Shown here in pieces: positions 5,081 through 55,232 of a stretch of DNA of 64,000 nt. Source of the DNA: a virus; the IMG/VR virus record IMGVR_UViG_3300042897_000742, positions 29,872 to 93,871 of that record; one strand, written 5' to 3'. Each line of letters opens with the position of its first letter. Position 1 is the stretch's first letter. The position numbers and the translations under genes are program-made. The notes below the pieces were generated by a model. That model worked only from the letters and a program-made list of their open reading frames with translations. It was not told where the DNA came from and did no database searches.

Positions 5081-6031
5081 ATGAAGTACTTAAAACTGTT
5101 TGAAGAATTCTTAAATGAAGCCGCTGAAGAAACTGGGTTAAAGAAAGTTTATCTAGCCACTCGTCGTGATAGCGGACAAAGATGGTGGTCTTATAAAGGG
5201 TTCGCCGGTGATAAATTCTTTATCCAGGTTACTGAGAATAACATTGATAAGTTAGATATTAATCCTGAGTACCCGGTACTTAATTATCATAGTACCATTG
5301 TAGATGAGTTACTAAAGAAGAAAAAGATTAAAGAAGAAAACATCTATAATCATCCTAAGTATATTCCATTATCAGGTTCTAAGAAAGAATTTCATAAACT
5401 CGTAGGGGAGGATGAAAATGTACCTAAGACAGTTTATTCAAAGAATGAAGCATTAGAGAAGTTAAATTTTCCTATTATTGCAAAACCTGCAAATGGTCAC
5501 AGTGGAATTGGAATCCAGGTAATTAAGAAGCCTGAGTTAATGGAAGAGATTGATGAGAAGATCTTCGATACTTTTTCTGAATATGTAGATAAAGTAGAAG
5601 AAATGAGATTCTTTAACTTTAAAGGTCAACCTATCTTTTGGATGGAAAGAACACCTGCAAACAGTAAAGCAAAGTCTGGTGATGGCAAGACCGATGAAGA
5701 AATGGAATTCAAGTATGCTAAGAGAAATGTTAATAACATACCAGAAGACTATAAAAAGGTTTTAGAAAAGTATTGCAAAACATTTGAAAAATTTCCCTAT
5801 ATTTGTTTTGATATGATGAAAGACAAAGAAGGAAAGATTTATGTAATTGAATCGAATGCTCAACCCGGCGTACCGTTCGATAGTACGGTTGAAATCTATA
5901 AGAAAGTATATGAAGATTTCTATGGTAAACCATTAGACGATAAATCTCTTCAAAAACTAGATAAATACGCAAAAGAAATGGTTGAAAGAACGCTAAAACG
6001 CGATAGTGGAAGATTTTCTGTAAAAAAGTAG
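5081..6031 (+). CDS. ATP-grasp (RimK-like) protein with capsid-targeting-like leader
   Basis: FPIIAKPANGHSGIGI, EMRF, CFDMM and IESNAQPG; N-terminus MKYLKLFEEFLNE. Confidence 0.8.
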   Translation: MKYLKLFEEFLNEAAEETGLKKVYLATRRDSGQRWWSYKGFAGDKFFIQVTENNIDKLDINPEYPVLNYHSTIVDELLKKKKIKEENIYNHPKYIPLSGSKKEFHKLVGEDENVPKTVYSKNEALEKLNFPIIAKPANGHSGIGIQVIKKPELMEEIDEKIFDTFSEYVDKVEEMRFFNFKGQPIFWMERTPANSKAKSGDGKTDEEMEFKYAKRNVNNIPEDYKKVLEKYCKTFEKFPYICFDMMKDKEGKIYVIESNAQPGVPFDSTVEIYKKVYEDFYGKPLDDKSLQKLDKYAKEMVERTLKRDSGRFSVKK

Positions 6032-6081
6032 AAAAAAGTCCACTAAAAATTTTCAAATCTCGTTTTTTTGTTTTATATTTG
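6031..6081 (+). promoter_or_regulatory. Host-type (Bacteroidetes) promoter TTTCA-N18-TATATTTG; partial copy of the early cassette
   Basis: TAnnTTTG at 6074-6081; upstream GAAAAAAGTC..AAAATTTTCAAATC shared with the cassette repeats. Confidence 0.65.
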
Positions 6082-6119
6082 TACTGACGGTATTTTTATA
6101 CTGTCTTAAAACAAATAAT

Positions 6120-6662
6120 ATGTCTGAAGAACTAAAAGAAATATCTGATTTTTACATTACATCGGATACGTGGTTTGGTAGACCACAGATCCTTGATATT
6201 GCAAGGAGGACCCAGTTTTCAAACATTGATGATATGAATGATCAATTCATCAAAAACTGGAATAAACATGTTAAATCAACTGACCTAGTTTTTCACTTAG
6301 GTAATTTTGCATGGGACCCTCATACCGCAAGAACCGTATTAAAAAAGCTTAAAGGTAAAATCTTTTTCATGATTGGAAATTCTGATGAAGCCTTAATTGA
6401 AGTAGCTGACGAATTTGCAAACGTCGAGGTTCTTGACCAACAAATAATTGAACTTCCGCAATTTGATTCTGTTCTCTGTCATTATCCTCTCGAGGTTTGG
6501 AATGGTAAATCATCAGGGACAATTCATTTTCACGGTCATACTGTTTTTTCTCACAAGACTGATCTTAGATCATCCAATCGTGTAAATGCTTGCATTGACT
6601 TTTGGAATTATTCACCAATTAAATTTTCGGCAATTAAAGAATTCGTACATGGCAAAAAGTAA
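6120..6662 (+). CDS. Calcineurin-like metallophosphoesterase with degenerate catalytic motifs
   Basis: SDTWFG, HLGNF, GNSD, CHYP and HGH; motif order intact but three key residues substituted. Confidence 0.75.
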   Translation: MSEELKEISDFYITSDTWFGRPQILDIARRTQFSNIDDMNDQFIKNWNKHVKSTDLVFHLGNFAWDPHTARTVLKKLKGKIFFMIGNSDEALIEVADEFANVEVLDQQIIELPQFDSVLCHYPLEVWNGKSSGTIHFHGHTVFSHKTDLRSSNRVNACIDFWNYSPIKFSAIKEFVHGKK

Positions 6663-7275
6663 AACCTACAAAGAACTGGCAATTGAGTTTAAGAAAACTC
6701 GCTCTGAAAGAATTTACAATGAACTTTACAAAAAAATGAGACCAGGATTATGGTCTTACGTAAATAACATTGTAAGAGATCCCGCTGTGGCTGATGATAT
6801 TGTATCAACCACTTTAACTAATGTGTATCTAAAGATTGATCAGTATGATGAATCTTATCAGATTACGACATGGGCTTATCGTATTGCATATAATGAATGC
6901 ATAGGATGGATTAGATTCCGTAACAAAAAGATAAGTATTAATGTGTTCACCGACGCAGGTGTTGAACCACCAACAAAAGATGGATTCCTTGAACCGGAAC
7001 TTCATGTAAAAACTGAGGATGATTTCTGGGAGGAAGAAGATATCTTAACTGAACAGGTAAGAGTAACCAAAGAAGCAATTAACGCCCTGCCACCAATGTA
7101 TAAGAGATACATGGTAGAGAGATTCCTTAATCATAAATCGTATAATGATATCTTGGATATCATGGTAGAATATGAAAAAGACATTAATCTTCAAACTGTA
7201 AAGAATCGTATCTTTAGAGGTAGAAAGATTATCCAAAAGCAGTTAGAGAAAATGAAACTCTTTTCTGAAGCATAA
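6649..7275 (+). CDS. ECF-type RNA polymerase sigma factor
   Basis: Region 2 (DDIVSTTL..VY..IDQYD..Y.ITTWAYRIAYN) and region 4 (LP..YK..SY..I....TVKNRIFRGR). Confidence 0.85.
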   Translation: MAKSKTYKELAIEFKKTRSERIYNELYKKMRPGLWSYVNNIVRDPAVADDIVSTTLTNVYLKIDQYDESYQITTWAYRIAYNECIGWIRFRNKKISINVFTDAGVEPPTKDGFLEPELHVKTEDDFWEEEDILTEQVRVTKEAINALPPMYKRYMVERFLNHKSYNDILDIMVEYEKDINLQTVKNRIFRGRKIIQKQLEKMKLFSEA

Positions 7276-7740: not shown

Positions 7741-8484
7741 ATGGCAACTAAAGAATCTCTTTTACAAACCGAAACAATAAATGGTAAACGATATTATGTT
7801 ATAGGAGAACATAAGTACCCTTCAGTTACCACTATCTTAGGATCAATGACAGATTCGTCTGGTCTTGATAAGTGGAGAAAACAAATAGGTGAAGCCGAGG
7901 CAGATAAGATCTCTAAGTTTTCTGCTAATCGTGGTACAATCATGCATCAAATGATTGAATATTATTTAGGTTCAGAAAAAGAAACTCAAAAAGAAAGGCT
8001 TAGAGAAGCACAGGAAAAAATCATTACCTTTGTTGAAGCAGAAGGTTTTACTGAAGATGAATTAGAAGTTGGCAGAAAATTATTCTATAGTTTTTATAAT
8101 AATGATCTCTTCAGTAAGATTGGTAAGGTTATAAGTATCGAGGAGACGATCTACTCCCACCAGATGGGAGGGTATGCAGGTAGAGTAGATAATATTTACG
8201 AGAATGTTTTATCTCATCTACTCATTCTAGACTTTAAGACATCCCGTAAGAGAAAGAAAAAAGAATGGATAGAAAACTATTTTATGCAGATTGCTGCATA
8301 TTTTCTAGCATATTGGGAAATGACCGGTAAAAAACCGGACGGTGGAGAAATCTGGATAGGTGTAGAAAATGATGAGCCTCAGGTTTTTGAACTTACCTGG
8401 GATGATATTCAAGAATATGGTAAGAAATTCTTATCCCTAGTAAAGGAGTATCATAAACTCAATCCATTACCTCAGAATATATAA
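7741..8484 (+). CDS. PD-(D/E)xK exonuclease
   Basis: YPSVTTIL, RGT.MH, AGRVD, ILDFKTS and Q.AAY motifs. Confidence 0.85.
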   Translation: MATKESLLQTETINGKRYYVIGEHKYPSVTTILGSMTDSSGLDKWRKQIGEAEADKISKFSANRGTIMHQMIEYYLGSEKETQKERLREAQEKIITFVEAEGFTEDELEVGRKLFYSFYNNDLFSKIGKVISIEETIYSHQMGGYAGRVDNIYENVLSHLLILDFKTSRKRKKKEWIENYFMQIAAYFLAYWEMTGKKPDGGEIWIGVENDEPQVFELTWDDIQEYGKKFLSLVKEYHKLNPLPQNI

Positions 8485-8811: not shown

Positions 8812-9117
8812 ATGAAACATATTCAGTCATTCGAGACTTTTTTTGCTAGAACTCTATCTGAGGAATTAGACCAAACGAGACATAAAGCGGCTAAACATAT
8901 CGAGGATATTGAAACCGATAATGAGTCGGACAAAAAGGCTGAAAAGGATGCTCAGGATTATCTAGATGATAAAGCAGATTATTGCCCAAGATGTAAAGAA
9001 CATAAGGACGATTGCCAATGTGCAGGGGAGGATCCTTGGTCTACTCAAAATTATCATAGAGTACCTCCTGGTAAAAAGGAGAAGAGTAAAGCAAAACAAG
9101 ACTTCAAAACAAAATAA
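8812..9117 (+). CDS. Putative internal virion protein (CTS-like leader) with Cys cluster
   Basis: N-terminus MKHIQSFETFFARTLSE; CPRC...CQC. Confidence 0.65.
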   Translation: MKHIQSFETFFARTLSEELDQTRHKAAKHIEDIETDNESDKKAEKDAQDYLDDKADYCPRCKEHKDDCQCAGEDPWSTQNYHRVPPGKKEKSKAKQDFKTK

Positions 9118-9121
9118 AGAT

Positions 9122-9409
9122 ATGGAAAAGATTAATTTATTTTTTGCAAAACATGGATCAAAAGTAATCACAATTCTTTTGATTCTTTTATACTTTAAAT
9201 CATGCGGTGTTGATAGCGAATTAGAGAGACTTAAAAAGGAAGCTAAAGCAAATACCGAATTGATTAATAAGTTACCATCTGCAGCCGATGTAAAAATTGA
9301 AGGTTTAAATGCAGAGAAAAGAATGATCCAAGCAACAGATCGTAGAATGTTGGATGTACAACGCCAAAACGAAATTGAGAAAGAGATCGAAATATTACAA
9401 GGTAAATAA
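9122..9409 (+). CDS. Membrane-anchored coiled-coil protein
   Basis: N-terminal TM segment (VITILLILLYF) followed by heptad-like sequence. Confidence 0.65.
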   Translation: MEKINLFFAKHGSKVITILLILLYFKSCGVDSELERLKKEAKANTELINKLPSAADVKIEGLNAEKRMIQATDRRMLDVQRQNEIEKEIEILQGK

Positions 9410-21125: not shown

Positions 21126-22007
21126 ATGAAATTTATTAAAACGTTTGTTAACTTCTTGACAGAGAAGAAGGAGGAAAAGGATTTTGAGGATAAAATAAAA
21201 GGTCATGGCTATTTTAAGGGAATATCTACTTCAACCGCCCGTAAGAAAATGGATCAGATGAAAGATCAGGCCGCTAAACCTGACGATGATCCTTCTGCTT
21301 ATAAAGAATTACCAGGCGACACTAAAGGAAAGAAACTTCTAAAACCTTCTAAACATACTAAGAATTATCAGGATCTTTATGCTGATGATGAAAAGGAAAC
21401 AAAAAATGAATCCATCATTAATTGGGAACTTTATCAACAACTAAAAGGTGGATCTACGAAAATTGAAAAAGAGCTTAAATATCAGATAGCTGAAAAGTAC
21501 ATAACTATAACAGCAACCGGACTTAATAAAGATGATAAAGCTGCTCTTATCAAAATGGGTGCAAATGTTACTATGATGGGCCCAGGATGGTATATAAATC
21601 TTAAAGATACTGATAAGAAAAAGATATTGGATTATCTTAATAAAGAAGGTATCGAAGTAAATGAAAACATTAATGAAGAATCTGGTGGAGATCGTTCACC
21701 GATTGATAATGATGCAATTGAAACTGGGTTAAAGAAAAAGAGTGAAGAAACTGGAGTTCCTCTTCCACTCCTTAGAATCGTAATGCGTCGTGGTATGGCT
21801 GCATGGAAGAGTGGTCATCGTCCAGGTGCAGGACAAGAACAGTGGGGTTATGCAAGAGTTAATTCATTTTTAACCCAAGCACCAGGTACTTGGGGTCGTC
21901 CTATTAAAGATCCTAAGAAAGGTGCAAAGGATGCCTATGGTGCTGATGCCGATGTTGCACAAGAAGTAATTAAAGGTGGACATGATAAAAATTTAAAGAA
22001 AGGATAA
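21126..22007 (+). CDS. CTS-leader multidomain protein; C-terminal DUF5824-like domain
   Basis: MKFIKTFVNFLTE; KNES and NENINEE linkers; RRGMAAWKSGHRPG...QWGYARVNSF. Confidence 0.7.
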   Translation: MKFIKTFVNFLTEKKEEKDFEDKIKGHGYFKGISTSTARKKMDQMKDQAAKPDDDPSAYKELPGDTKGKKLLKPSKHTKNYQDLYADDEKETKNESIINWELYQQLKGGSTKIEKELKYQIAEKYITITATGLNKDDKAALIKMGANVTMMGPGWYINLKDTDKKKILDYLNKEGIEVNENINEESGGDRSPIDNDAIETGLKKKSEETGVPLPLLRIVMRRGMAAWKSGHRPGAGQEQWGYARVNSFLTQAPGTWGRPIKDPKKGAKDAYGADADVAQEVIKGGHDKNLKKG

Positions 22008-22453
22008 TGAAAACTATAAAACTTTTTGAAGAATTTAAAGAAGCAACTTCTTGTCCGGTACCAACTAAAGATTTAGAAGTTAATACCAAAAATCGTAATA
22101 GAGCAATTCATGCAGACTTTATTGATTATGGTCCTCTTAATGTAGATGAACCTGCTGGGTATTGGGAACATCTCGCAGATCATTGGAAAACTAGTGTAGA
22201 AGCTGCTAAGAAATCAACGTGTGGAAATTGTGTTGCATTTGATATAGCTCCTCGTATGTTAGATTGCATGCCAGGTGAAATTAGCGATGAAGATGGAAAG
22301 TTAGGTTATTGTTGGATGCATCATTTCAAATGTCATTCTGCACGTAGCTGTTATACTTGGGCAAAAGGCGGTCCTATAACTGATGATAAAGTATCATATG
22401 ATTGGCAAGAAAGAAATCTTGATGCTGCAAATAATCCAAACCCTATTAAGTAA
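22007..22453 (+). CDS. CTS-leader Cys/His-rich protein
   Basis: MKTIKLFEEFKE; CGNC..F and GYCWMHHFKCHSARSC. Confidence 0.7.
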   Translation: MKTIKLFEEFKEATSCPVPTKDLEVNTKNRNRAIHADFIDYGPLNVDEPAGYWEHLADHWKTSVEAAKKSTCGNCVAFDIAPRMLDCMPGEISDEDGKLGYCWMHHFKCHSARSCYTWAKGGPITDDKVSYDWQERNLDAANNPNPIK

Positions 22454-22462
22454 TTGTTAAAT

Positions 22463-23005
22463 ATGAAATTTGTAAAAAACTTTAATGACTATCATAAGGT
22501 ATCTGAAGGACTCAAGTATCATATAGAAAATGGTTTGGATTTAACCAACAGTGTTTATCGCTTAGGTTCAGATTCATATACCAATCTATTTGAAGAAGTA
22601 AAACAGTATTGGGATAAAGGTAATATCATTCTAAACGGAAAAAGCGGTTGGATGGCAAAAAACCTTGAAGTTGGAAAACCTGCTGTTTATAATGACCGTA
22701 AAACTGGAAGAACTACCAAAGTAAAACTCGATTCACCGGAAAGAGGTGGAAATAAAAAGTTTATCGTTTATCGTAATACAGGTCGTACTGATGAAAACGG
22801 TAATGTAATTGCAAAAAAGATTGAATGGGGTGATCCGAACCTTACTGTAAAGAATGATGATCCAGGCAGAGCCGCATCATTCTGGGCAAGACACGGTTGT
22901 GATAAAGCTGAAAAAATGGATCCTAATAAGGCAGGTTTCTGGGCATGCTATGGTCCAAGTCTGTTCGGGAAGCAGTTAGGTTTAAGTAGTACTGAACCTT
23001 GGTAA
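22463..23005 (+). CDS. CTS-leader conserved phage protein (ARHxC motif)
   Basis: MKFVKNFNDYHKVSE; WGDP...SFWARHGCD...AGFWAC. Confidence 0.7.
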   Translation: MKFVKNFNDYHKVSEGLKYHIENGLDLTNSVYRLGSDSYTNLFEEVKQYWDKGNIILNGKSGWMAKNLEVGKPAVYNDRKTGRTTKVKLDSPERGGNKKFIVYRNTGRTDENGNVIAKKIEWGDPNLTVKNDDPGRAASFWARHGCDKAEKMDPNKAGFWACYGPSLFGKQLGLSSTEPW

Positions 23006-23034: not shown

Positions 23035-24390
23035 ATGAAACATATTCCTAATTATTCTGAATTTAAGAAAATTAATGAAGCCTTTGCTACTTCAATGACA
23101 ACGGTTCAGACTGATGCTAAATTAAATCAAGCGGCAGATATCATTACAAATTTCTTAAATAAGAAAACCGGTAAAGCATTTAAGAAATTCCCATTCCTAG
23201 TATATTCAGGTGGAACTCCAGGTATTATGCTTTATAGCGATAAAGATAATTCTGCTGTTAGAATCAGTGGCGGTTCAGGTCGTTTTCCTGGTGTTGTTGG
23301 TCAATTAGATTACTTCTCTGATGGAGCTTCTCATACGGCTGATTTTTCTGTTAGTAGTGAAACATTTCCAATCGTTGCATTACTTAATGAATTTGTTAAA
23401 TTAGTTAATGAACCTTCATATGCATCAGAAGTAGAATCATTAACAGAATCTACATTAAATGAAGCAACTAAATCGTTCTCTCCAGCTGAACAAAAAACAA
23501 TCTTAAGCAGATTGGATAAAGGAGAAAGCGGTGCTGCTATTGCAAGAGATATGGGAGTATCGTATGGTATGATTTTACAACTTAAGAGAAATGTAAGTGT
23601 ACCTGAAGATGAGAGTCCTGCTGTAAAGGCAAATGAATTAACATTACAAGATAAGGTTAAACTATTAGATGAAACGCTTGATGACCTTTATGAAATTACA
23701 AGAAGACTTGCCGCTGGCGCATTTACTTCTTTAATGGTTTCAGGTAGAGCAGGTACTGGTAAAACATTCTCCGTTACTAAAGCCTTAAAGGATGAAGGAC
23801 TTATTGAGGATGATGACTTTATCGTTGTATCTGGTGCAGTATCAGTTATTATGATGTATAAGAAAATGTATCAATATAGAAACCAGGTTCTGGTATTTGA
23901 TGACTGTGATGCTGTATTCCGCGATGAGAATGGCCGTAACATCTTAAAGGCTGCCCTTGATACTAAAAAGACTAGAAGAATCTCTTATCTTAAGAAGAGC
24001 GGATTAGTATTTGATCCTAAGGATTTTGAAAATAATCCAGAGGGTGAATTTAATGCAATTGAAAATGGATTAGTTCCTGCATATTTTGATTTTGCCGGTA
24101 GAGTGGTATTTATTTCAAACCTACCTAAAGATAAGGCTGACCCGGATGGGGCTATTCGTTCAAGATCAATCTTAATTGATGTTAATCCTGATGATATGAC
24201 TCTAATGGAAAGAATTAAAATTCTTTTACCGGATCTTGAACCAAGAGATATGCCTCTCAAAGATAAAGAAGAAATTTTTGAATTTATGAAACGTGCAAAA
24301 GACGTCTCAATGAGAACATTTGTTAAGGCTGCTGGTTTCAAACAGGCAGGTTTAAACAATTGGGAAAGAATGGCACAAAGATATCTATAA
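23035..24390 (+). CDS. CTS-leader protein with HTH and AAA+ ATPase domains
   Basis: MKHIPNYSEFKKINE; LTESTLNE linker; HTH SGAAIARDMGVSY; GRAGTGKT, VFDDCD and AIRSR. Confidence 0.8.
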   Translation: MKHIPNYSEFKKINEAFATSMTTVQTDAKLNQAADIITNFLNKKTGKAFKKFPFLVYSGGTPGIMLYSDKDNSAVRISGGSGRFPGVVGQLDYFSDGASHTADFSVSSETFPIVALLNEFVKLVNEPSYASEVESLTESTLNEATKSFSPAEQKTILSRLDKGESGAAIARDMGVSYGMILQLKRNVSVPEDESPAVKANELTLQDKVKLLDETLDDLYEITRRLAAGAFTSLMVSGRAGTGKTFSVTKALKDEGLIEDDDFIVVSGAVSVIMMYKKMYQYRNQVLVFDDCDAVFRDENGRNILKAALDTKKTRRISYLKKSGLVFDPKDFENNPEGEFNAIENGLVPAYFDFAGRVVFISNLPKDKADPDGAIRSRSILIDVNPDDMTLMERIKILLPDLEPRDMPLKDKEEIFEFMKRAKDVSMRTFVKAAGFKQAGLNNWERMAQRYL

Positions 24391-24393
24391 TAT

Positions 24394-25841: not shown

Positions 25842-26435
25842 ATGAAATACTTTAAAAAATATAATGAATTTGTTACTGAAAAGATTGCATATCCTGACGG
25901 GGATAAATCTACAGGTGATAAGATTCTTGATAAATTTGCTAAATTGATTAATAGTCCATCTAGTACTGTTAATATTATGTCATGGGCGGTTCAGGGTAGA
26001 AGTATACCTTTTATGACTGGTACCGAATCATTTTCTGTAAATGCTAATCCATCGCAAGACTATTTTTGGATTAATACATCAAAGGGAAAATTTAGACTAC
26101 CTAAAAAAGATATCAAAAAGGCAGAAGAACTTTATGATGAGGTAGAATCTATTATACAGACAGGTAAGCCTAAAAGGAGTGTTGAAGAATCTCTTAATGA
26201 ATCTACTTCACTAAAGAATGCAATCGCTATTCTTAAAAAGGAAAACATTATGGCATATCCTAACCCAGAAGATTTGGCAAAAGCAATTCACAAACACTAT
26301 AAAGAAATTACAGGTAATAAATATGAAGATGCCGTTGAAATGTCAATGAATGATAAGGTAGCTGATATCGTATCATATTTTAAGATTGATGGCTCTGATT
26401 TTATGTCAGCCTGGGATAAAACAATAAAAGACTAA
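25842..26435 (+). CDS. CTS-leader two-domain protein
   Basis: MKYFKKYNEFVTE; VEESLNES linker. Confidence 0.7.
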   Translation: MKYFKKYNEFVTEKIAYPDGDKSTGDKILDKFAKLINSPSSTVNIMSWAVQGRSIPFMTGTESFSVNANPSQDYFWINTSKGKFRLPKKDIKKAEELYDEVESIIQTGKPKRSVEESLNESTSLKNAIAILKKENIMAYPNPEDLAKAIHKHYKEITGNKYEDAVEMSMNDKVADIVSYFKIDGSDFMSAWDKTIKD

Positions 26436-26441: not shown

Positions 26442-26858
26442 ATGATTACATCATTTAATAATTTCGTAAACGAAAACTTTGGAGAAGCCCAAGACATTTA
26501 TGGTTCATTCTTCGTGGCTATGTTAGGCCTTAGAGATCAGGCTCATATTTTCCATTGGCAAACGGAATCATTTGCACAGCATAGCGCATTCGGTGGATTT
26601 TATGATTCATATCTCGACCTTGTTGATAAACTATCAGAATCATTAATTGGCATTCATGGAAGACCTTCTTTTATGGAGGCTGAAATTGAGTTATATGGTT
26701 ACAGTGAAGAAAATATAGCAATGTTTTTAGAAAAAGCATATGCCCTATTCTTAGGTCAAGGTACTGAATTGGCCGGAGGTAATACCGAAATCAAGAATAT
26801 CATCGATGAGATTATTGCTGAACTTGATAAATTAAAGTATCTTCTTACTTTAAAGTAA
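26442..26858 (+). CDS. Ferritin/Dps-like (DUF5856-like) protein with CTS-like leader
   Basis: HIFHWQT...H.A....YD......D...E and KLKYLLTL; leader MITSFNNFVNE. Confidence 0.75.
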   Translation: MITSFNNFVNENFGEAQDIYGSFFVAMLGLRDQAHIFHWQTESFAQHSAFGGFYDSYLDLVDKLSESLIGIHGRPSFMEAEIELYGYSEENIAMFLEKAYALFLGQGTELAGGNTEIKNIIDEIIAELDKLKYLLTLK

Positions 26859-45521: not shown

Positions 45522-45819
45522 GAAATATAGATACCGCATTGAACACATTTATCCACCGGCATTTGCAGTGGTAGGTGGTCAGCGGTATCTGTTTCCTGGC
45601 TGGATTCCTGTCGAAGATGATGTTACATTCGAAGATGTGGAACATATTAATCCTTATGCAAATCTAAAAAAGGAAACCTTCACGGTGACAGGATCCACTG
45701 GAAATACATACACGGTGACACGGCGAGAAAACGAACTCACTTGTGACTGCCCAGCCGGAAAATTCCGCGGTCAATGTAAACATATAACCCAAATTAAAAC
45801 CGAACTGTCATTGTCCTAA
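45514..45819 (+). CDS. SWIM zinc-finger protein
   Basis: GSTGNTYTV...CDCP.......CKH. Confidence 0.75.
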   Translation: MPKKYRYRIEHIYPPAFAVVGGQRYLFPGWIPVEDDVTFEDVEHINPYANLKKETFTVTGSTGNTYTVTRRENELTCDCPAGKFRGQCKHITQIKTELSLS

Positions 45820-45841
45820 TATATAAAATAAATTAGTACAA

Positions 45842-46189
45842 ATGAATACAGTTCTTATTATTTTATTGATTGCAGCTGTTATTGCAACAATATATACTAC
45901 GTTTAGTGGTAAAAAGAGTTCAACATTAGTAGGATATTCCGAACCACATAAACCAAGCGGTATCTCTGGGTTTAAACCGAGCGGTACATCTGGTATCTCT
46001 GGAACTAAACCGAGCGGTACATCTGGTATCTCTGGAACTAAACCAAAGCCAAAACCGAGCGGTACATCTGGTATCTCTGGAACTAAACCAAAGCCAAAAC
46101 CGAGCGGTACATCTGGTATTAAAGGTGTTAAAAAACCTGGAAGACCAAAGAAGACGAGTGGCAATAGCGGAATTAAAGGAATTAAATAA
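45842..46189 (+). CDS. Membrane-anchored protein with PSGTSGISGTK repeats
   Basis: N-terminal TM; near-exact DNA tandem repeats at about 45950-46120. Confidence 0.7.
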   Translation: MNTVLIILLIAAVIATIYTTFSGKKSSTLVGYSEPHKPSGISGFKPSGTSGISGTKPSGTSGISGTKPKPKPSGTSGISGTKPKPKPSGTSGIKGVKKPGRPKKTSGNSGIKGIK

Positions 46190-46575
46190 TGAAAAGCTAT
46201 AAAGACTTCATATCAGAATCATTTGTACAAAATGTAGTACAAAACGATAAGGATCCAAACTTTGATGGTGCAGATCCTTCCTCTATTGAAATTCATAATA
46301 GGGGTATCGGTGGTGTAAATTCTCTACAAGGTCATCGTGATCAAATTGTAAGACTTTTGGAACAAATGCTTGCTGATGCTAAAATGGCTCAAAAGAACCA
46401 TAAATTAGCTCATTACTCTATTGCAAAGATTTTATCTTTGGCTGATCCTGATCGTATAACAGGTGTGTTACTCACTTACCTAAAGAACCATCAGACTGCA
46501 ATTGAAGAATTAGAAGCAATTCGTAGAAAAGGTGGAAGTGGAGCCGGAAAATCAATTCCTAAAGGATTGATCTAA
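46189..46575 (+). CDS. CTS-leader protein
   Basis: MKSYKDFISE, closest match to the T4 leader MKTYQEFIAE. Confidence 0.7.
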   Translation: MKSYKDFISESFVQNVVQNDKDPNFDGADPSSIEIHNRGIGGVNSLQGHRDQIVRLLEQMLADAKMAQKNHKLAHYSIAKILSLADPDRITGVLLTYLKNHQTAIEELEAIRRKGGSGAGKSIPKGLI

Positions 46576-46590
46576 AAATAAAATTACATA

Positions 46591-47361
46591 ATGGCATTAA
46601 GATTTAACAGCATTCAAGAATACGGTGAGTATATCTATAATGAATGTATTAAGCAAAACAAACAAAAAGACGTTTGTAATAGCGGAAAAGGTGGTACAAA
46701 AACAAAAGTAACTGATTCCGATCCTGATGGTTTTAGTTTAACTTATTCTTCAAGTAACCTAGATGCTAAATCACAGGAATACTTAAACACTCACACGGTG
46801 ATAAGTAAGGCACCACCGCAAAATGCACCAGCCCATATAGAAATTGTTGAAGGAGAAATCTGGAAGCAAACTATTCATAAGTATGATAAAAATGTTTATG
46901 CAAGCAAAACCGTAGTTGATAATTCAACTGACTTTTCTGTTTCTGCTGATGCATCTTATAAAGAAGCTAATGTTAGTGCAAATTATGAACAAGTTTATTC
47001 TGAAGAAGATACTAATGTAAGTGAAGAAGTTTCAAAAGAAGCATCACAATATGATTTAGAATTTCATGGTATTCAAGGAAAGCATTATGCTGTCGATTTT
47101 TATACTAATAAGTACACATGTTCTGACCGACCTGTATTAGAGATTACCTATACATTTGAGTCAATAACATTTAGGGCAGTATGTGATTATTCTGATGGCG
47201 CTGCTCTTCATTGGAATAACGAACACTATCATAAAACATATAACATTGCATCTCTAGGACTTGACCCGGTTGTTACTATTCCGCAAGTTGTAGCATTTGA
47301 TGTTAATTATGATAACCCATGGCCTAGCTATACAATAACAAACATAGAAGATAACGCATGA
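46591..47361 (+). CDS. Beta-rich hypothetical protein (possible aerolysin/ETX-like fold)
   Basis: Ser/Thr-rich alternating segment DFSVSADASYKEANVSANYEQVYS. Confidence 0.5.
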   Translation: MALRFNSIQEYGEYIYNECIKQNKQKDVCNSGKGGTKTKVTDSDPDGFSLTYSSSNLDAKSQEYLNTHTVISKAPPQNAPAHIEIVEGEIWKQTIHKYDKNVYASKTVVDNSTDFSVSADASYKEANVSANYEQVYSEEDTNVSEEVSKEASQYDLEFHGIQGKHYAVDFYTNKYTCSDRPVLEITYTFESITFRAVCDYSDGAALHWNNEHYHKTYNIASLGLDPVVTIPQVVAFDVNYDNPWPSYTITNIEDNA

Positions 47362-47945
47362 AACATATCAGAGAATACGAAGAATTTCTAAATGAAAATA
47401 CAAACGCAAGGCGATTCCAAAATAAAGGAAAGCTGCGTTATAGCGATCAATTTAGCGGTAATGTTAGTCTTTCAAAAACAATTGGTACTGAACTAGGATT
47501 TGATCCAAAGAAAGGATCATCGGGTGTTGGATTCGATAATGTATCTATGTATGATAATGAATCGAGTAAAACTATCGTAGGTGATGCACTTACTGGTAAA
47601 TACACATACGATGATCTCGTTAAACTTGCAAAAGAATGGTATGGCAAGAATGAATCTATGGTTAGTGAAGCTGCAAGTGTACCTTCAAACATTATGGATT
47701 TTGCAAAGAGAAAAGGTTCTTATGCAGTTAGTCTTGTAAAGAAGGCTGCAACATGGGCAGAAAAAGCCGGTAAAAGAATATCTGGTGGTACTGCAATCGG
47801 AAAGAATTATGACACTATCATTCTTGATATGAAACACCAAGGATCTGAGATCTACATTAACCTTAATAATGAAACGATTGAACTATACGGTGAAGAGGTA
47901 ACTGATGCTAAATCATTTGCCAAAGTACTTCAAGATAACGAATAA
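47358..47945 (+). CDS. CTS-leader two-domain protein
   Basis: MKHIREYEEFLNE; KNESMVSE linker. Confidence 0.75.
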   Translation: MKHIREYEEFLNENTNARRFQNKGKLRYSDQFSGNVSLSKTIGTELGFDPKKGSSGVGFDNVSMYDNESSKTIVGDALTGKYTYDDLVKLAKEWYGKNESMVSEAASVPSNIMDFAKRKGSYAVSLVKKAATWAEKAGKRISGGTAIGKNYDTIILDMKHQGSEIYINLNNETIELYGEEVTDAKSFAKVLQDNE

Positions 47946-47955
47946 ATAATTTACT

Positions 47956-48258
47956 ATGAAACATATAAAACTTCTTGAAGAATTCGTTAATGAAAATATG
48001 ATTAATGAATCTGAGACATTTGATGGATTAAGATCTAAATTTGAGAAAAATCCTTACGGTATAGGAGCTCAATTGTCGTATTACGAAGAAGGGAAATACG
48101 GATATCCCGATAGCTTAGTATTTAAGCATGACGAAAAATATAGAAGAGACATGATAATACCTAAATTGAAGTCAATGGGGGTTCCTTCTAAGAATATTAT
48201 AAAATCCGTAGAAAAAGGTTATAAATATCCTTTTGTAGTTACAGTAACAAAATTTTAA
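47956..48258 (+). CDS. CTS-leader protein
   Basis: MKHIKLLEEFVNENMINE. Confidence 0.75.
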   Translation: MKHIKLLEEFVNENMINESETFDGLRSKFEKNPYGIGAQLSYYEEGKYGYPDSLVFKHDEKYRRDMIIPKLKSMGVPSKNIIKSVEKGYKYPFVVTVTKF

Positions 48259-48264
48259 TTAATT

Positions 48265-49392
48265 ATGAGGCATATAAAACTGTTTGAAGAATTTATAAGT
48301 GAAGCCGCTCGTATTGGTAATAGCTCTTGGAGTAATATTCTCAGAGACCTAAAATATGATGGCTGGGACATAAAGGGTAATTCTGCTTATAAATCATATG
48401 AAGGTGATAGCGGTGACGAAAGAAAACTTGAACTTTCTAATTATGGTGATGAAGAAGTTGAATGGACCATTTATGATGGAAGAGGTAAGGAGATTAACTC
48501 AGGTTCATTTGATGCAGAAGGCTTAAGTGCCGGTGAATTGGATAGCGAAGTTTGGGGCAACATCGAAGAATCTGTTAGTGAAGCAAAAGATATCTCAATT
48601 AAAGACTATAAAGTTGGAGATGTTATTTCTTTTAAGGATGGTGAAGACTGGAAAGTAACAAAGGTTAAGTATGATAAACTCATGGTTAAGCCTCATAATG
48701 AAAAAGCCAAAAAAGCAAATACAAGCATAGAGATTGATATTGACTTAGACTACCTTAAAAATAATCTAAAGGAATCTTTTATTAATGAAGGTCGTACAAT
48801 TGAAAAGATTGAAAAAGACAGAACTAAAGTAGTTAATGATATGGCTGAAATTGTTACTAATTGGAAAGCCGCTAAAGAATCTGGTGATAAAAAAGCCGAG
48901 GCATCATTTTTACAAAGACTTAAGGATCTCACTGCCCAAAAGAAAGGCCTAGAGAAAGAGCTTAACATGGCAATCGCAGGTAAAGATCGTGATGTTGAAT
49001 TAGTTATCTCAGAAAGTGTTATGTCAGAAATTGACTTATTAGCAAGAGAAGCCAAAAACTTTAAAGATTTTCTTAAAGCATTTAAGACTGATAATCGTTA
49101 TAAAGGTTTAGATACTGCAGGTGATACTAAGGAATTTGAAGATTGGTTAAAATCTATATATGATAACGCTAAGAACGAAAGTATGAATGAAGCTGAAGAT
49201 GTTAAGAAAGGTATTCATGATCATTGGAAAGAATTATATAATGAAGACTTTATTTCCACATATCCTAAAGTAGCAAAGATTCTTAAGAATCGTCAAAACG
49301 TTGATCGTCGCGAATTGGCAAGAATCTGGGATGAAACCTATGGCGAAGACTTTAAAGAAAAGTACGCTAAGATCTGGGATGTTTTAGATTAA
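48265..49392 (+). CDS. CTS-leader polyprotein-like protein (5 modules)
   Basis: MRHIKLFEEFISE; linkers EESVSE, KESFINE, ISESVMSE and NESMNE. Confidence 0.75.
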   Translation: MRHIKLFEEFISEAARIGNSSWSNILRDLKYDGWDIKGNSAYKSYEGDSGDERKLELSNYGDEEVEWTIYDGRGKEINSGSFDAEGLSAGELDSEVWGNIEESVSEAKDISIKDYKVGDVISFKDGEDWKVTKVKYDKLMVKPHNEKAKKANTSIEIDIDLDYLKNNLKESFINEGRTIEKIEKDRTKVVNDMAEIVTNWKAAKESGDKKAEASFLQRLKDLTAQKKGLEKELNMAIAGKDRDVELVISESVMSEIDLLAREAKNFKDFLKAFKTDNRYKGLDTAGDTKEFEDWLKSIYDNAKNESMNEAEDVKKGIHDHWKELYNEDFISTYPKVAKILKNRQNVDRRELARIWDETYGEDFKEKYAKIWDVLD

Positions 49393-49889: not shown

Positions 49890-50077
49890 GTTTGTTTGAT
49901 ATAATGGATGAAGCAATTGCAACAGAGTTAGGTGTTGATATTAAAACATACATTGATGTTATTGAGAATCGCTGTACTTATGAAGAGGCCAAACTTATTA
50001 TTGATAACATATGGGATGAAGATGGTAATCCTGATTTAGCAAAAGAACTGTTTAACGAAAAACTAAAAGGAGAGTAA
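49883..50077 (+). CDS. Hypothetical protein
   Basis: Coupled ORF. Confidence 0.6.
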   Translation: MLGLFDIMDEAIATELGVDIKTYIDVIENRCTYEEAKLIIDNIWDEDGNPDLAKELFNEKLKGE

Positions 50078-50078
50078 T

Positions 50079-50750: not shown

Positions 50751-51424
50751 AAAGAATAACATTCATAAGCGATACTCATACAAAACATAGAATGTTGGAT
50801 CTCCCAGGTGGAGATATCCTAATTCATAGTGGAGACATTATGAATAGTGGATATAACCTAAATGATGTCCAGGACTTTCTTATGTGGTTTGAAAAACAGG
50901 ATTATAAAGAGCTTATCTTTATTGCAGGTAATCATGATCGCATGTTTGAAAACCATCCAATAAGGATGGATGAAATACTTGAAGGATTCCCCTCTGTTAC
51001 ATATCTTGAAGATGACTGGGTTGATGTAGATGGAATTAAGATTTATGGTTCTCCTTGGCAGCCTGAATTCTTTAACTGGGCATTTAATCTTCCAAGAGGT
51101 GGAGAAGAAATTGAAGAAAAGTGGTCAATGATTCCTCCAGATACTGACATTCTCATCACACACGGTCCACCGCAAGGACACCTAGATACAAGTGGTGCAC
51201 CTTATAATGAACCTAACTTAGGCTGCGAATTGCTTCGTATCTATGTTGATAACATTAGACCAAAGATTCATGTATTTGGTCATATTCATGGCAGTGCTGG
51301 GCATAAGAAAGACAATCATATACATTTTGTTAATGCTGCAGTTCTTAATGAAAGATATGAACAAGTAACAAATGGGATTACTGTTGACTGGGATCCTGAA
51401 ACAAATTCAATAGATTTCATATAA
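50747..51424 (+). CDS. Metallophosphoesterase (MPPED-like, intact motifs)
   Basis: SDTH, HSGD, AGNHD, THGPP and FGHIH. Confidence 0.9.
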   Translation: MKRITFISDTHTKHRMLDLPGGDILIHSGDIMNSGYNLNDVQDFLMWFEKQDYKELIFIAGNHDRMFENHPIRMDEILEGFPSVTYLEDDWVDVDGIKIYGSPWQPEFFNWAFNLPRGGEEIEEKWSMIPPDTDILITHGPPQGHLDTSGAPYNEPNLGCELLRIYVDNIRPKIHVFGHIHGSAGHKKDNHIHFVNAAVLNERYEQVTNGITVDWDPETNSIDFI

Positions 51425-53614: not shown

Positions 53615-53894
53615 GAAAGAATATAAAGAAACTCCTAAGACAGAGATTGGAGCCGCTGTCCTTGAAAACTTTACATACGGTTTTATAGGATCTGTTATTG
53701 TGGTATTCATTTCAAACAAAGTTGACATAGCCGTTCTGTTAAGTTATCTTGCATACTATTTCTTTGTAGGACGTGTTGTTAATAGACCAAAGTATGTAAC
53801 CTCTTTAGGAAAATTTATTGTATTTCCTGTATCTGCTGCTCTTGGGGCATTTACCGGGTATAAACTTGCACAATTTGTAACACCATTTTTATGA
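53595..53894 (+). CDS. Small multi-pass membrane protein
   Basis: Three hydrophobic segments. Confidence 0.65.
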   Translation: MGIKKIKKEYKETPKTEIGAAVLENFTYGFIGSVIVVFISNKVDIAVLLSYLAYYFFVGRVVNRPKYVTSLGKFIVFPVSAALGAFTGYKLAQFVTPFL

Positions 53895-54547
53895 GAATAC
53901 CGAATATTTTACATATGATCTGGGTTGGTGATAGAACTCCACCTAAGTACTTTTGGGATAATCTAAACGGTTGGAAAGACTTAATGCCAGATTGGACATT
54001 TATGGTTTGGACTAATGAAGTTCTGACAGAAAAAGTAATAGGAAGTCAACATAAAGATTTCTTAGATCTTTTAGGTCGTTGCAGAAACGGCGCACAAATG
54101 GCGGATTTACTTAGTTACTTTGCAATAGAAAGATTTGGTGGATATTTTATGGATGCTGATGTAACACCAATAAGATCGCTAGATGAATTAGATACAGAAG
54201 GCAAAGAAGTAATTTTATGTCACGATTTACCTGAAATTACTTGGAATTTTGTTTCTGCCGGTTTCTTTGGTGGTGTACCTCATCACCCCTTATTCCAAAA
54301 CCTAGTTAAAAATGCAAATCGTATAGATTTAACTGATCCTGATCAACAGATAACTACTGGGCCTGGTTATTTAGGAACGGAATGGTCAAAAATTGACTGG
54401 TCTAAAAACGGCGGATACTTAATGTTACCTTACTGGGCATTTTATCGTAATCGTATAGGTGATCCTGGACCTTATATGCCGGACCGTATTATGCTAGATC
54501 ATCCTGGTGCATTTGGCAATCACTTTTATGCAGCCGAATGGCTTTAA
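53891..54547 (+). CDS. GT32/OCH1-like glycosyltransferase
   Basis: IP.ILHMIWVG, AD, GGYFMDAD and TGP. Confidence 0.85.
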   Translation: MRIPNILHMIWVGDRTPPKYFWDNLNGWKDLMPDWTFMVWTNEVLTEKVIGSQHKDFLDLLGRCRNGAQMADLLSYFAIERFGGYFMDADVTPIRSLDELDTEGKEVILCHDLPEITWNFVSAGFFGGVPHHPLFQNLVKNANRIDLTDPDQQITTGPGYLGTEWSKIDWSKNGGYLMLPYWAFYRNRIGDPGPYMPDRIMLDHPGAFGNHFYAAEWL

Positions 54548-54665
54548 GAATATATAAACAAATGATAAGTACTCTAGGTAATATTGCTGCTGCCTTATTT
54601 GTTTTACAAGGAACCCTAATGATATTACCTCTTATTATACTTGGTAAAATTATTAAAGCTTTTAA

Positions 54666-55232
54666 GTGAAACATATAAAGACATACGAAAAATTCCAATT
54701 GGTAGATGAAACTTACCAGATCTTGGAAGGAAAGGTTTCTCGTGAAGAGCTTACCAATATCATAAATGAAGGTTTCTTTGGATTCCTTCGTGGTCTTTTT
54801 GTTGATAATAAAACAAAAAGAGCTCTTGATAAACTAGCCGATGATCTATTTAAGACAAAGGTTGAATTAATGAAATTAGAGATCCAGGAAGATCAGGTAG
54901 ATGCCTTTAAAGATGAACTTAAAGCAGCCGAACAAGGGCAAGACTATTCCAGTCAACAGGGAGAACTTGATACAACAGACCTTGACCGGATTAAGGAAAT
55001 GAAGATTAAATCTCTACAAGACCGTGAAACTGCAATATCTGACGAAATGGATAATCTTGGTCAGATATCGGATAAACTACAGAGGTATGTAGAAAAGATT
55101 AAACTAGATGTCCGCATGAAGGCAACTGATGCCACAATCAAAATAGCTGATGATGAAATCGCCCGTATTCTACAGAAATTGAAGCGCGAAGATCAAAAGC
55201 AATCCCAGCAAATTGACCGTGAATTAAGGTAA
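54666..55232 (+). CDS. CTS-leader coiled-coil protein
   Basis: GTG start, MKHIKTYEKFQLVDE; ILE and IINE linkers. Confidence 0.7.
   Translation: MKHIKTYEKFQLVDETYQILEGKVSREELTNIINEGFFGFLRGLFVDNKTKRALDKLADDLFKTKVELMKLEIQEDQVDAFKDELKAAEQGQDYSSQQGELDTTDLDRIKEMKIKSLQDRETAISDEMDNLGQISDKLQRYVEKIKLDVRMKATDATIKIADDEIARILQKLKREDQKQSQQIDRELR

Follow-up and report, generated by a model that had tools for sequence, protein, structure and literature searches.

In bacteriophage T4, the internal proteins IPI, IPII and IPIII, as well as Alt, carry a short N-terminal tag, typically of 10 to 19 residues, that begins at the initiator methionine and is processed by the prohead protease gp21. In this capsid targeting sequence (CTS), MKTYQEFIAE, residues 4 and 7 (Y and F) are the mapped determinants of targeting and residues 8 and 10 (I and E) those of processing, and the tagged cargo is kept in the head and injected (reviewed in PMC9026906). 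The tag has an aromatic pair at i/i+3 followed by aliphatic-x-Glu, the gp21 rule being (L/I)xE, and the proteins that bear it are otherwise unrelated and evolve fast.

Other systems share parts of this scheme. The phiKZ-like giants (phiKZ, SPN3US), which are jumbo myoviruses, pack the head with many proteins, some of them enzymes, and their prohead protease (gp175/gp245, Peptidase_S80), related to T4 gp21, likewise trims after Glu. Their propeptides are reportedly long and dissimilar, with the cleavage motif S/A/G-x-E, and we know of no portable leader shared among them. Encapsulin cargo-loading peptides are short and portable and bring unrelated enzymes into an HK97-fold shell; they are usually C-terminal and uncleaved, and the shell neither contains DNA nor delivers anything to another cell. 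In phage P1, the anti-defence Dar proteins are reported to be loaded into the head via an N-terminal targeting signal and injected (PMC9024508, PMC12810830). P1 packaging depends on DarA/Hdf, and DarB carries an N-terminal capsid-targeting signal.

Here we describe a jumbo phage of lake origin, not yet cultured, whose head is of the T4 type and in which a common N-terminal tag of 10 to 17 residues, counted up to the Glu, stands on 16 unrelated proteins. The window analyzed is a stretch of 64,000 nucleotides (positions 29,872 to 93,871 of IMG/VR record IMGVR_UViG_3300042897_000742), and some searches covered the whole 93.9-kb contig. The tag agrees with the T4 CTS in its position, in the order of its aromatic, aliphatic and Glu residues and in its unrelated, fast-evolving cargos, and both phages have a Gp23 capsid; a T4-type portal and an S77 protease are found in relatives of the present phage. 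Unlike in T4, the usual leader has a three-residue insertion (MK-x-I-K-x ahead of the aromatic pair), and the protease of the relatives is fused to the scaffold. T4 has a handful of cargos, whereas 16 to about 26 are predicted per genome here, and many are enzymes or multi-module chains. The lineage is also distant: the large terminase (TerL) has its matches among the large-terminase PHROG families of phages and shares about 31% identity with gp17 of T4-like cyanophages and about 35% with TerL of the nearest cultured phages, PAU and PTm1. In contrast to the phiKZ-like giants, the head protease of this lineage scores higher against Peptidase_S77 (53.8 bits) than against S80 (32 bits). Finally, P1 Dar resembles the present proposal in its N-terminal head-loading signal, but in P1 the cargo proteins govern their own, ordered loading, and neither a short leader common to them nor a protease rule of the T4 type is known.

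Results

A common leader at 16 N-termini

A sequence-only reading of this DNA had placed a T4-CTS-like leader on about 16 proteins. All 16 N-termini were recovered, on the + strand of the window:

5081..6031, + strand: MKYLKLFEEFLNE and an ATP-grasp ligase (RimK/Ddl-like), 316 aa
8501..8809, + strand: MKRIQTFESFLNE and a 102-aa protein with no assigned function
8812..9117, + strand: MKHIQSFETFFARTLSE and a 101-aa acidic/basic Cys-containing protein
21126..22007, + strand: MKFIKTFVNFLTE and a 293-aa protein with a C-terminal DUF5824 domain
22007..22453, + strand: MKTIKLFEEFKE and a 148-aa Cys-rich protein; FKE in place of [LIV]xE
22463..23005, + strand: MKFVKNFNDYHKVSE and a 180-aa protein with no assigned function; matrix score 15.3
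23035..24390, + strand: MKHIPNYSEFKKINE, an N-terminal extension of about 200 aa and a T4 NrdC.10-like P-loop domain; 451 aa
24394..25839, + strand: MKHFKSYSEFKLQE and a 481-aa multi-module protein; internal linkers ESLNE and ESVNE, PepSY-like C-terminus
25842..26435, + strand: MKYFKKYNEFVTE and a 197-aa protein; internal linker EESLNE
26442..26858, + strand: short leader MITSFNNFVNE and a Dps/ferritin-like four-helix bundle (DUF5856), 138 aa
26858..27160, + strand: MKYIKAYESFLFE and a 100-aa basic domain
46189..46575, + strand: T4-format short leader MKSYKDFISE and a 128-aa basic protein
47358..47945, + strand: MKHIREYEEFLNE and a 195-aa protein with no assigned function
47956..48258, + strand: MKHIKLLEEFVNE and a 100-aa basic protein
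48265..49392, + strand: MRHIKLFEEFISE and a 375-aa multi-module protein; linkers EESVSE and NESMNE
54666..55232, + strand: MKHIKTYEKFQLVDE (GTG start) and a 188-aa coiled-coil-like acidic protein

The leader follows the consensus M-K-x-(I/F/V)-K-x-[FY]-x-x-[FY]-[LIV]-x-E or, in shortened form, the T4 format, and a start codon opens it in all 16 cases. The start at 22463 is the first ATG, three codons downstream of a TTG, and the GTG start at 54666 is also found in the orthologue of the related genome G002.

The leader was modeled as a position-specific scoring matrix (positions 2-10 of the 14 full-length leaders, Met excluded) and searched in the six-frame translation of the whole contig, training set included. 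This profile scan, which the earlier reading had suggested, gave 13 sites of at least 20 bits, and a long ORF on the + strand begins at each of them; the top match away from a start scored 18.2 bits. The result is partly circular because the training leaders lie in the scanned contig, and independent controls were therefore needed. Start codons gave no match in Tenacibaculum phage PTm1 and Sphingomonas phage PAU, two AT-rich jumbo phages of about 220 kb each (about 30% GC). In IMG/VR, one exact leader variant opens 85 distinct proteins of 52 families, some of them Acb1-like. The retrieval pattern fixed positions 1-5 and 7-10; the free position 6 was L, I or V in 84 of the 85 proteins, position 11 was V, I or L in 58 and position 13 was E in 64. 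A relaxed scan of the window revealed no additional convincing leader protein, and a further candidate, MKELVNFEHFRIIRE, lies at contig position 1764, upstream of the window. The motif might also have been common on cytoplasmic enzymes; the recognisable housekeeping enzymes in the window are without it.

The leader is conserved at the protein level, not at the DNA level. Where two leaders agree in a residue, they use the same codon in 60% of cases, third-position identity is 47%, and comparison of the DNA upstream of the leader genes revealed no conservation. The claim that these proteins share nothing after the leader held almost entirely: in all-against-all BLASTP, similarity was confined almost wholly to residues 1-13. 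One other pair below E = 0.01, the proteins at 25842 and 48265, has a C-terminal piece in common (E = 0.003).

A promoter-like box, the exact octamer ATATATAA, has 15 copies on the contig, every one of them on the + strand. It precedes the sheath gene, other genes of the virion structural block and four leader-gene units:

5056..5063, + strand: ATATATAA box, 25 nt upstream of the leader gene at 5081
8477..8484, + strand: ATATATAA box before the leader genes at 8501 and 8812, 24 nt upstream of 8501
45819..45826, + strand: ATATATAA box before the gene run 45842-49392, which has four leader genes
54550..54557, + strand: ATATATAA box, 116 nt upstream of the leader gene at 54666

The ATG at 5081 is internal to a longer ORF that opens at 5030; it is the likely true start, because the box at 5056 falls inside the 5030 extension. 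No ATATATAA box precedes the largest cargo island (21126-27160), and late expression is therefore unsupported for 8 of the 16 leader genes.

Correspondence with the T4 targeting sequence

Conservation among the leaders is strongest at an aromatic residue, a second aromatic at +3, an aliphatic residue and a Glu, and these are the four residues mapped in the T4 CTS. The aromatic pair, [FY]xx[FY], is found in 15 of the 16 leaders, the protein at 47956 having LxxF. Likewise, [LIV]xE occurs within residues 9-17 in all but the protein at 22007, where FKE has no aliphatic P3. The short leader MKSYKDFISE at 46189 and MTYAEFIAE, from a protein of the related genome G006, come near the MKTYQEFIAE of T4 ipII and ipIII. 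As a positive control, the N-terminal regular expression was run on T4 and gave four matches only, ipII and ipIII among them. Moreover, the T4 gp23 sequence FGSFLTE-AEIGG, which we take to be the maturation cleavage site, fits the heptad [FY]xx[FYH][LIV]xE. With so few residues, the leader does not allow a homology statistic against the T4 CTS.

Head protease and scaffold heptad

Bases 1-132 of the contig encode the last 43 residues of a Gp23-like major capsid protein, identical to the C-terminus of its G002 counterpart; Portal_T4, Peptidase_S77 and Gp23 were all confirmed in G002. Peptidase_S77 scored above the Pfam cut-off in all five close relatives tested, in which this T4-type head protease and the scaffold form one fusion protein. 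It is also present in both of the leader-bearing genomes with a completeness of 90% or more. The S77 gene is not on the present contig, which is 34% complete. In G005 and G002 it lies 14.6 kb upstream of TerL, a position about 3.4 kb past the 5' end of this contig. Thus, the S77 protease of this phage is inferred from synteny with its relatives.

The heptad was found in two places only, the leader N-termini and the protease-scaffold ORF. In the relatives this ORF has 5 to 10 copies, mostly at 14-residue spacing, whereas T4 gp22 has none, and PTm1 and PAU, relatives that lack the leader, gave no copy in their equivalent ORFs. The scaffold-borne repeat is a new observation of the present analysis; its apparent co-occurrence with the leader rests on few, phylogenetically clustered genomes. 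In G006 (complete, 256 kb), a leader also opens an ORF of 130 aa that is flanked by the portal and protease genes and sits where T4 has genes 67/68.

Cargo proteins and their turnover

Among the functions read from the sequence at the outset, ATP-grasp, DUF5824 and Dps-like stood; for most cargos no function could be assigned. The protein at 23035, first labelled "HTH-AAA", is more aptly called an N-terminally extended P-loop protein of the T4 NrdC.10 kind. Its homologues from T4-like phages have no leader, and their alignments start no earlier than residue 144 or 221. In the Dps-like family, leaderless forms measure 116-124 aa and leader-bearing forms 137-147 aa. The AF2 model of the member at 26442 has pLDDT above 95 for residues 19-134 and below 50 for residues 4-15, the leader region, which is disordered and away from the fold; every top match in a fold search was Dps. 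Since leaderless homologues exist, the leader is a detachable add-on to independently folding domains.

The cargo set changes quickly between related phages. This phage and G006 have 2 of the 16 cargos in common, and swaps are seen even among relatives with 97% TerL identity. Some proteins keep their leader in the relatives: the one at 54666 in its G001, G002 and G004 orthologues and the one at 22463 in its G001 orthologue (75% identity); the protein at 8812 also has orthologues in G001, G002 and G004. The ATP-grasp orthologue has the leader form MLFEQFLNE in G006, and in G001 a domain like that of the protein at 26858 is inserted between leader and ATP-grasp. The G002 counterpart of the protein at 8501 keeps residues 1-19, and the remainder is swapped for a different 277-aa ORF. 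The N-terminal module of the protein at 48265 is not conserved, because its best alignments begin at residues 99 (G002) and 157 (G004). No homologue of the protein at 47358 was found in the fetched part of G004, and none of the one at 47956 in what was fetched of G002 and G004, both close relatives. Finally, internal linkers of the form [ED]S[LIVMF][NSTD]E occur six times in 3.5 k cargo residues and not once in 16.9 k non-cargo residues.

Discussion

The proposal of a portable T4-CTS-like leader for a gp21-type prohead protease gains much support from the matching CTS residues, the T4-type head, the scaffold heptad, the leaderless homologues and the housekeeping enzymes of the window, which lack the leader. 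We consider it likely that the common N-terminus is a T4-CTS-type propeptide, serving capsid loading and cleavage, and the proteins that bear it are probably packaged in the virion. That they are injected effectors is a more tentative suggestion, which we would place slightly below an even chance.

As the head assembles, the leader would use its aromatic pair to dock the protein on the protease-scaffold core, possibly by imitating one 14-residue scaffold repeat. The activated protease would cut after the Glu of [LIV]-x-E and free the cargo inside the shell; it would also cut the scaffold at its repeats and the multi-module cargos at the E-S-[LVM]-[NS]-E linkers within them. Once free, the proteins would remain in the DNA-filled head, and at least some would reach the host cell together with the DNA. 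If the scaffold repeats are mere cleavage sites, as they may be, the mimicry step would have to be dropped, but not the cleavage step. A load of 16 or more cargo species, some of 450-480 aa, would be far above the handful known for T4, and this counts against capsid loading.

The leader could instead be a substrate or docking tag of the head protease on assembly-phase components (core, scaffold accessories, chaperone-like factors) that are degraded or expelled before DNA packaging, so that nothing is delivered to the next host. T4 gp22, gp67 and gp68 largely meet this fate. The heptad is common to the scaffold, itself destined for destruction, the leader ORF of G006 sits at the gp67/68 position, and several cargos are acidic (pI 4.5-5.8), unlike the basic DNA-associated internal proteins of T4. 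However, the ATP-grasp and NrdC.10-like proteins are enzymes with no obvious assembly role, leader proteins elsewhere include Acb1-like, HD, GNAT and kinase domains, and such fast turnover is atypical of assembly factors. Moreover, T4 CTS cargo is retained and injected (PMC9026906). Assembly-phase components are thus an unlikely explanation. It is more improbable still that the tag addresses another partner, such as a RiPP-like modifying enzyme (ATP-grasp, radical-SAM), a ClpB-like chaperone or an intracellular address. The ATP-grasp protein is conserved in G000, G001, G002, G004, G006 and G008 and weakly matches an ATP-grasp peptide-maturase model, but it bears the leader itself and is absent from the 92%-complete, leader-bearing G007. 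Against a radical-SAM/RiPP-like leader, its cognate radical-SAM/SPASM enzyme (PF04055) was absent from G000, G001 and the complete G006 in a search that found it in all 14 control genomes. The gp21-type cleavage rule also closes the tag, which agrees with the T4 CTS at the functionally mapped residues and shares its heptad with the protease-scaffold as the only other home.

Shared 5' ends might also reflect recombination or regulatory cassettes acting on the DNA (shuffling, translation initiation), with a functionless peptide. The cargo swap right behind the conserved leader in G002 and the domain inserted after it in G001 would suit this view, as would the mobile regulatory cassettes reported for T4-type genomes (PMC2839356). 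Yet synonymous codons vary freely, the upstream DNA is unrelated, and residue class (aromatic, aliphatic, Glu) is conserved across 52 families and distant genomes, which makes DNA cassettes highly improbable.

No published description of such leaders was found outside T4 and its close relatives. The capsid-targeting propeptide would most plausibly belong to an unusually large system of the T4 CTS type in a distant lineage that is still uncultured. Its rapid cargo turnover would fit roles in host takeover or counter-defence, the least certain step of the scheme.

A protein-level leader family

Sixteen otherwise unrelated + strand proteins of the window (hereafter cargos, each named c plus its start coordinate) had been reported from the sequence to share an N-terminal leader; it usually reads M-K-x-(I/F/V)-K-x-[FY]-x-x-[FY]-[LIV]-x-E. 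All 16 N-termini were found as described. A profile scan had been suggested, and a position-specific scoring matrix of leader positions 2-10 was scored in six frames over the whole contig, i.e. the complete 93,871-bp record. It gave 13 matches of at least 20 bits, each opening a long + strand ORF; elsewhere the top match reached 18.2. In PTm1 and PAU (~220 kb each, ~30% GC), two cultured relatives, zero start-codon matches were obtained.

Residues shared between leaders were encoded by the same codon in only 60% of pairs, third-position identity among leaders was 47%, and the DNA upstream of them was unrelated. The leader signal is therefore at the protein level. The alternative that it is a DNA-level cassette is contradicted by this codon variability and was rejected.

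Similarity among the 16 proteins stops at about residue 13. The claim that they share nothing after the leader thus holds for all but c25842 and c48265, which have one C-terminal piece in common. No member beyond the 16 was found in the window, and one extra candidate lies upstream of it (contig position 1764). The sequence-only reading had named equal frequency of the motif on cytoplasmic enzymes as an argument against itself; the recognisable housekeeping enzymes of the window lack the leader (topoisomerase, ClpB-like AAA+ protein, IMPDH/GMP-reductase family enzyme, carbamoyltransferase, two thymidylate-synthase paralogues and a glycosyl/methyltransferase). That a real, selected leader family exists is in our view practically certain.

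Source phage

The record is linear, with a CheckV completeness of 34%, which implies a genome of ~270 kb. The contig has a GC content of ~33% and nearly every gene is on the + strand. The large terminase (TerL), tail sheath and tail tube are encoded in the 30 kb upstream of the window. Among GenBank phages, the closest TerL matches were uncultured huge phages (50% and 39% identity), with ~35% identity to Sphingomonas phage PAU and Tenacibaculum phages PTm1 and PTm5, and ~31% to T4-like cyanophages. Many close relatives, with TerL 82-100% identical, are present in IMG/VR (those used here are numbered from G001). Based on the structural genes, the TerL relationships and the IMG/VR relatives, the source is an uncultured aquatic jumbo myovirus. 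No Shine-Dalgarno motif was found upstream of start codons, where the sequence is A-rich instead; this suggests a Bacteroidota-type host, probably of lake or marine water, consistent with the nearest cultured relatives, for which Tenacibaculum and Flavobacterium are the hosts considered. PTm1 and PAU, the nearest cultured phages, were considered as relatives with proteomes; they lack the leader family and were used as negative controls only.

A blastn search of a 5.5-kb stretch against GenBank phages gave a distant ClpB-like similarity as its sole result. The window encodes a full-length ClpB/Hsp104-like two-ring AAA+ protein (28120-30144; AAA_2, ClpB_D2-small), the closest DNA matches of which are in 630-640-kb uncultured huge phages. 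Collagen triple-helix repeats (Pfam Collagen, 3.8e-31) mark the 1053-aa product of 9409-12570, probably a fibre or whisker protein encoded outside the main structural block. From 56000 to 64000, GC rises from ~33% to 41-43% and genes are short and poorly supported on both strands; by its composition, this region looks foreign to the remainder of the contig.

Portability and turnover of the cargos

Leaderless homologues of the Dps-like cargo (DUF5856) measure 116-124 aa and begin at the first helix of the bundle, whereas leader-bearing homologues measure 137-147 aa, with a variable linker of 8-14 residues behind the leader. AlphaFold2 predicted a confident four-helix bundle for this cargo (residues 19-134, pLDDT >95), with residues 4-15 unpacked against the fold (pLDDT <50); its best structural matches were all Dps proteins, at TM ~0.6 and weak E-values. 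Homologues of the NrdC.10-like cargo, in ~1300 mostly T4-type phage records, are leaderless and align only from residue 144 or 221 on. The ATP-grasp cargo has three kinds of N-terminus in three genomes: a long leader here, a short one in the complete 256-kb relative G006, and in G001 a long leader with a copy of the c26858 domain inserted behind it. The leader is thus a portable add-on. The G001 protein (50061-51275, L092), with this domain between leader and ATP-grasp, is a 404-aa fusion whose junction, ...LLKESVNTEGG..., resembles E-S-V-N-E linkers.

Turnover was assessed against relatives with 95-97% TerL identity, using parts of G002 and G004. In c8501, residues 1-19 are kept and the remainder is replaced. 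No homologue of c47956 was found in these parts of G002 or G004. In c48265, conservation does not extend to the N-terminal modules, the best alignments beginning at residues 99 and 157, and the second island of G004 contains three different leader genes. G006 (TerL 58% identical) has homologues for only 2 of the 16 cargos; its own leader ORFs number ~26 and lie mostly in a single island at 177-200 kb. Cargo turnover is rapid. Nine of the 16 cargos had no match in Pfam, PHROGs or NCBIfam, and an ESM Atlas search with c48265 returned nothing usable.

A T4-type head and prohead protease

The contig opens inside a capsid gene: bases 1-132 code for its final 43 residues, and these match the C-terminal end of the Gp23-family major capsid protein (MCP) of G002 exactly. 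Peptidase_S77 (S77), the gp21-type prohead protease domain, was above the Pfam cut-off in 5/5 relatives examined (TerL 82-97% identical). It lies within an ORF of 577-582 aa, 14.6 kb upstream of TerL in G005 and G002, and synteny places this ORF ~3.4 kb past the 5' end of the contig. In G002, Portal_T4 is followed by the S77 protease, whose ORF continues into a long scaffold-like C-terminal part, and then by the Gp23 MCP. In G006, a 130-aa ORF between portal and protease bears the leader; T4 core genes 67/68 occupy that position. S77 was detected in 6/10 large leader-bearing contigs tested, including both that are at least 90% complete, and the four without it are fragments (24-49% complete). 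Judged by these genes, the phage head is of T4 type, and from synteny with the relatives we infer a gp21-type protease in the source genome.

Correspondence with the T4 capsid targeting sequence

T4 ipII and ipIII start with MKTYQEFIAE. Loading by this capsid targeting sequence (CTS) requires just these 10 residues, of which 4 and 7 act mainly in targeting and 8 and 10 in processing; with Asp at position 10, cutting is blocked and loading is still possible (PMC9026906). The Tyr, Phe, Ile and Glu of the CTS correspond to the four best-conserved leader positions (aromatic 7, aromatic 10, aliphatic 11 and Glu 13). The T4-CTS-like character proposed from the sequence is thereby supported, as these four positions match the T4 residues mapped for targeting and processing. 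The usual leader differs from the CTS by three additional residues behind Met-Lys, whereas short leaders have exactly the T4 layout (MKSYKDFISE at 46189, MITSFNNFVNE at 26442; MTYAEFIAE and MLFEQFLNE in G006).

As a positive control, the N-terminal heptad [FY]xx[FYH][LIV]xE was searched in the whole T4 genome and retrieved only four ORFs, including ipII, ipIII and gp61.1. The 54-aa gp61.1 (NC_000866 18966-19130; L276:67-231:-) is annotated as hypothetical only, not as an internal protein, and its N-terminus, MKTFKEFIKE, is near-perfectly CTS-like. A Dps-like homologue in ~200 T4-like Klebsiella and Enterobacter phages (e.g. Klebsiella phage KP179, Tevenvirinae, L235:1504-1890:+) begins with MKFNDFVKD, a CTS layout with Asp replacing the cleavage Glu. 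A leader-type heptad also occurs in T4 gp23, in FGSFLTE-AEIGG, which we take to be the maturation cleavage site. The leader is probably read by the head protease or capsid-loading machinery.

Heptad repeats in the protease-scaffold ORF

Across the gene sets, the heptad is concentrated in two places only, the first 12 residues of leader proteins and the protease-scaffold ORF. Copies in the latter number 9 in G001 and 8 in G006 (every other protein there has at most 2), 10 each in G003, G004 and G005, 6 each in G007 and G012, and 5 in G014, mostly at 14-residue spacing. The scaffold part of the G002 ORF (L087:1435-3165:+) contains nine consecutive 14-residue repeats, x-I-x-Y-[AS]-E-[YH]-[LVI]-[ASG]-E-x-[LV]-[DE]-K, each perfect tandem repeat ending with a protease-type site, and an extra heptad, FMNFLSE, further along. 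The fusion with repeats is found in both G002 and G006 (L237). PTm1 and PAU, both without the leader family, have no heptad in the corresponding ORFs of their protease region. T4 gp22, gp67, gp68 and gp21 were rejected as heptad carriers, none of them containing one, and the gp23 site is the only occurrence among these T4 head proteins. Scaffold mimicry consequently cannot be demonstrated in T4.

The repeats are compatible with two readings. The heptad may be merely an extended substrate site of the protease, with the scaffold diced at each repeat and the cargo cut once. Alternatively, the aromatic pair may also be a core self-association element, and the leader would enter by imitating a scaffold repeat. 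The mutational data from T4, in which the aromatic residues serve targeting rather than cleavage, would favour imitation of the scaffold. Under scaffold imitation, the leader would amount to one unit of the 14-residue repeat by which the scaffold self-associates and at which it is cleaved, and any protein gaining an N-terminal [FY]xx[FY][LIV]xE would co-assemble with the protease-scaffold core, be cut free and then be injected. As the loading mechanism, scaffold mimicry is a speculative proposal that we rate as less likely than not. The finding points to a concrete rule, open to testing, by which the T4 CTS may find the core: aromatic-aromatic-aliphatic-Glu heptads common to scaffold and cargo. 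Such a rule was not found in the T4 reviews consulted.

Internal linkers and promoter-like elements

The motif [ED]-S-[LIVMF]-[NSTD]-E occurs 6 times in 3,493 cargo residues versus 0 in 16,852 residues of other window proteins, and [LIVM][NS]E was observed 21 times for 6.2 expected. In relatives, the MCP begins with ...LINE-AE, and [LIV]NE-S sites are numerous in the scaffold. Enrichment of the linker motif in cargo supports the idea that multi-module cargos may be cut apart by the head protease at internal linkers.

The exact octamer ATATATAA is present 15 times on the + strand of the contig and 0 times on the - strand. Most copies of it or of its variant TTATATAA lie 13-37 nt ahead of a start codon. 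Within the virion structural block, the sheath gene and seven others have such a box ahead of them, as do the following:

5081, + strand: leader gene, box ahead
8501, + strand: leader gene, box ahead
45842: start of an operon, box ahead
54666, + strand: leader gene, box 116 nt ahead
contig 1764: leader candidate upstream of the window, box ahead

No box of this type was found ahead of the first cargo island (21126-27160), so that co-expression with head genes is only partly supported.

Directly past the MCP stop codon, a GC-rich hairpin is followed by a T-run (GGTCCGCTTCGGCGGACC TTTTTTTTT) and next by a ATATATAA box, forming a clean terminator-promoter junction (contig 133-200, upstream of the window). 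A distinct conserved element of ~40 nt, tttgtatta-a/t-atTTATATAAA-a/t-t-a/t-aaa..cggatatgg, has three copies (window 41300-41345 and 57225-57270; contig 24035-24080, upstream of the window). A small ORF has its start codon at the end of each copy (MENKIKINRNP..., MVQTTKNY..., MENQIN...). This element may act as a promoter for a different temporal class or represent a mobile regulatory cassette.

Alternative roles of the leader

The most serious alternative is that leader proteins are loaded and cut yet serve assembly, without being delivered. Their enzyme content and quick turnover count against this for most members. The view that most cargos are injected effectors is a tentative one, put forward at somewhat less than even confidence. 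A radical-SAM or RiPP-like tag is excluded here, as no radical-SAM gene was found in G000, G001 or the complete G006. The conserved ATP-grasp protein is unlikely to recognise the tag, being itself tagged and absent from G007, a 92%-complete genome that bears leaders.

Distribution and significance

IMG/VR was scanned exactly with one leader variant only, M-K-H-I-K-x-[FY]-E-E-F. This gave 111 matches at 103 loci, for an estimated chance expectation of <1, and each match opens an ORF. The 85 distinct leader proteins form 52 families, unrelated past residue 14. Few were recognised by Pfam. Six proteins were 2H phosphoesterases with an additional match to the anti-CBASS Acb1 family (best score 28.3 bits for a cut-off of 27), and the Zeta-toxin/AAA_33 kinase, HD, GNAT, cytidylyltransferase-like and ATP-grasp families had one matching member each.

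Leader-directed capsid loading is an established concept in T4 and close relatives, whose internal proteins have been described as diverse defence proteins with only the conserved CTS in common (PMC3012670), and the CTS has been suggested to be an evolutionary device to load various proteins into the capsid (PMC9026906). The present case differs in its distant, uncultured, jumbo-sized lineage, in its 16 to ~26 cargos per genome, which include enzymes and multi-module chains, in its extended leader form and, in the relatives' genomes, in a protease fused to a scaffold with multiple copies of the leader heptad. Literature searches yielded no account of CTS-like leaders beyond T4 and close relatives, an absence of evidence only, coverage being incomplete.

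Proteins carried in the phage head act ahead of any phage gene expression, which makes them prime candidates for host takeover and first-strike counter-defence. To our knowledge, they are almost impossible to spot from sequence. If the leader is a true capsid address, it labels them directly: 16 proteins here, ~26 in G006 and at least 52 unrelated IMG/VR families from one exact variant, including Acb1-like 2H phosphoesterase, HD, GNAT, kinase and nucleotidyltransferase domains. It would also offer a short natural tag for loading foreign proteins into non-T4 phage capsids. If scaffold mimicry is true, a whole clade of uncultured jumbo phages would carry 15-30 pre-made proteins per virion, Acb1-like anti-CBASS phosphodiesterases among them, and the heptad motif would be a sequence-only key to list injected phage effectors in metagenomes.
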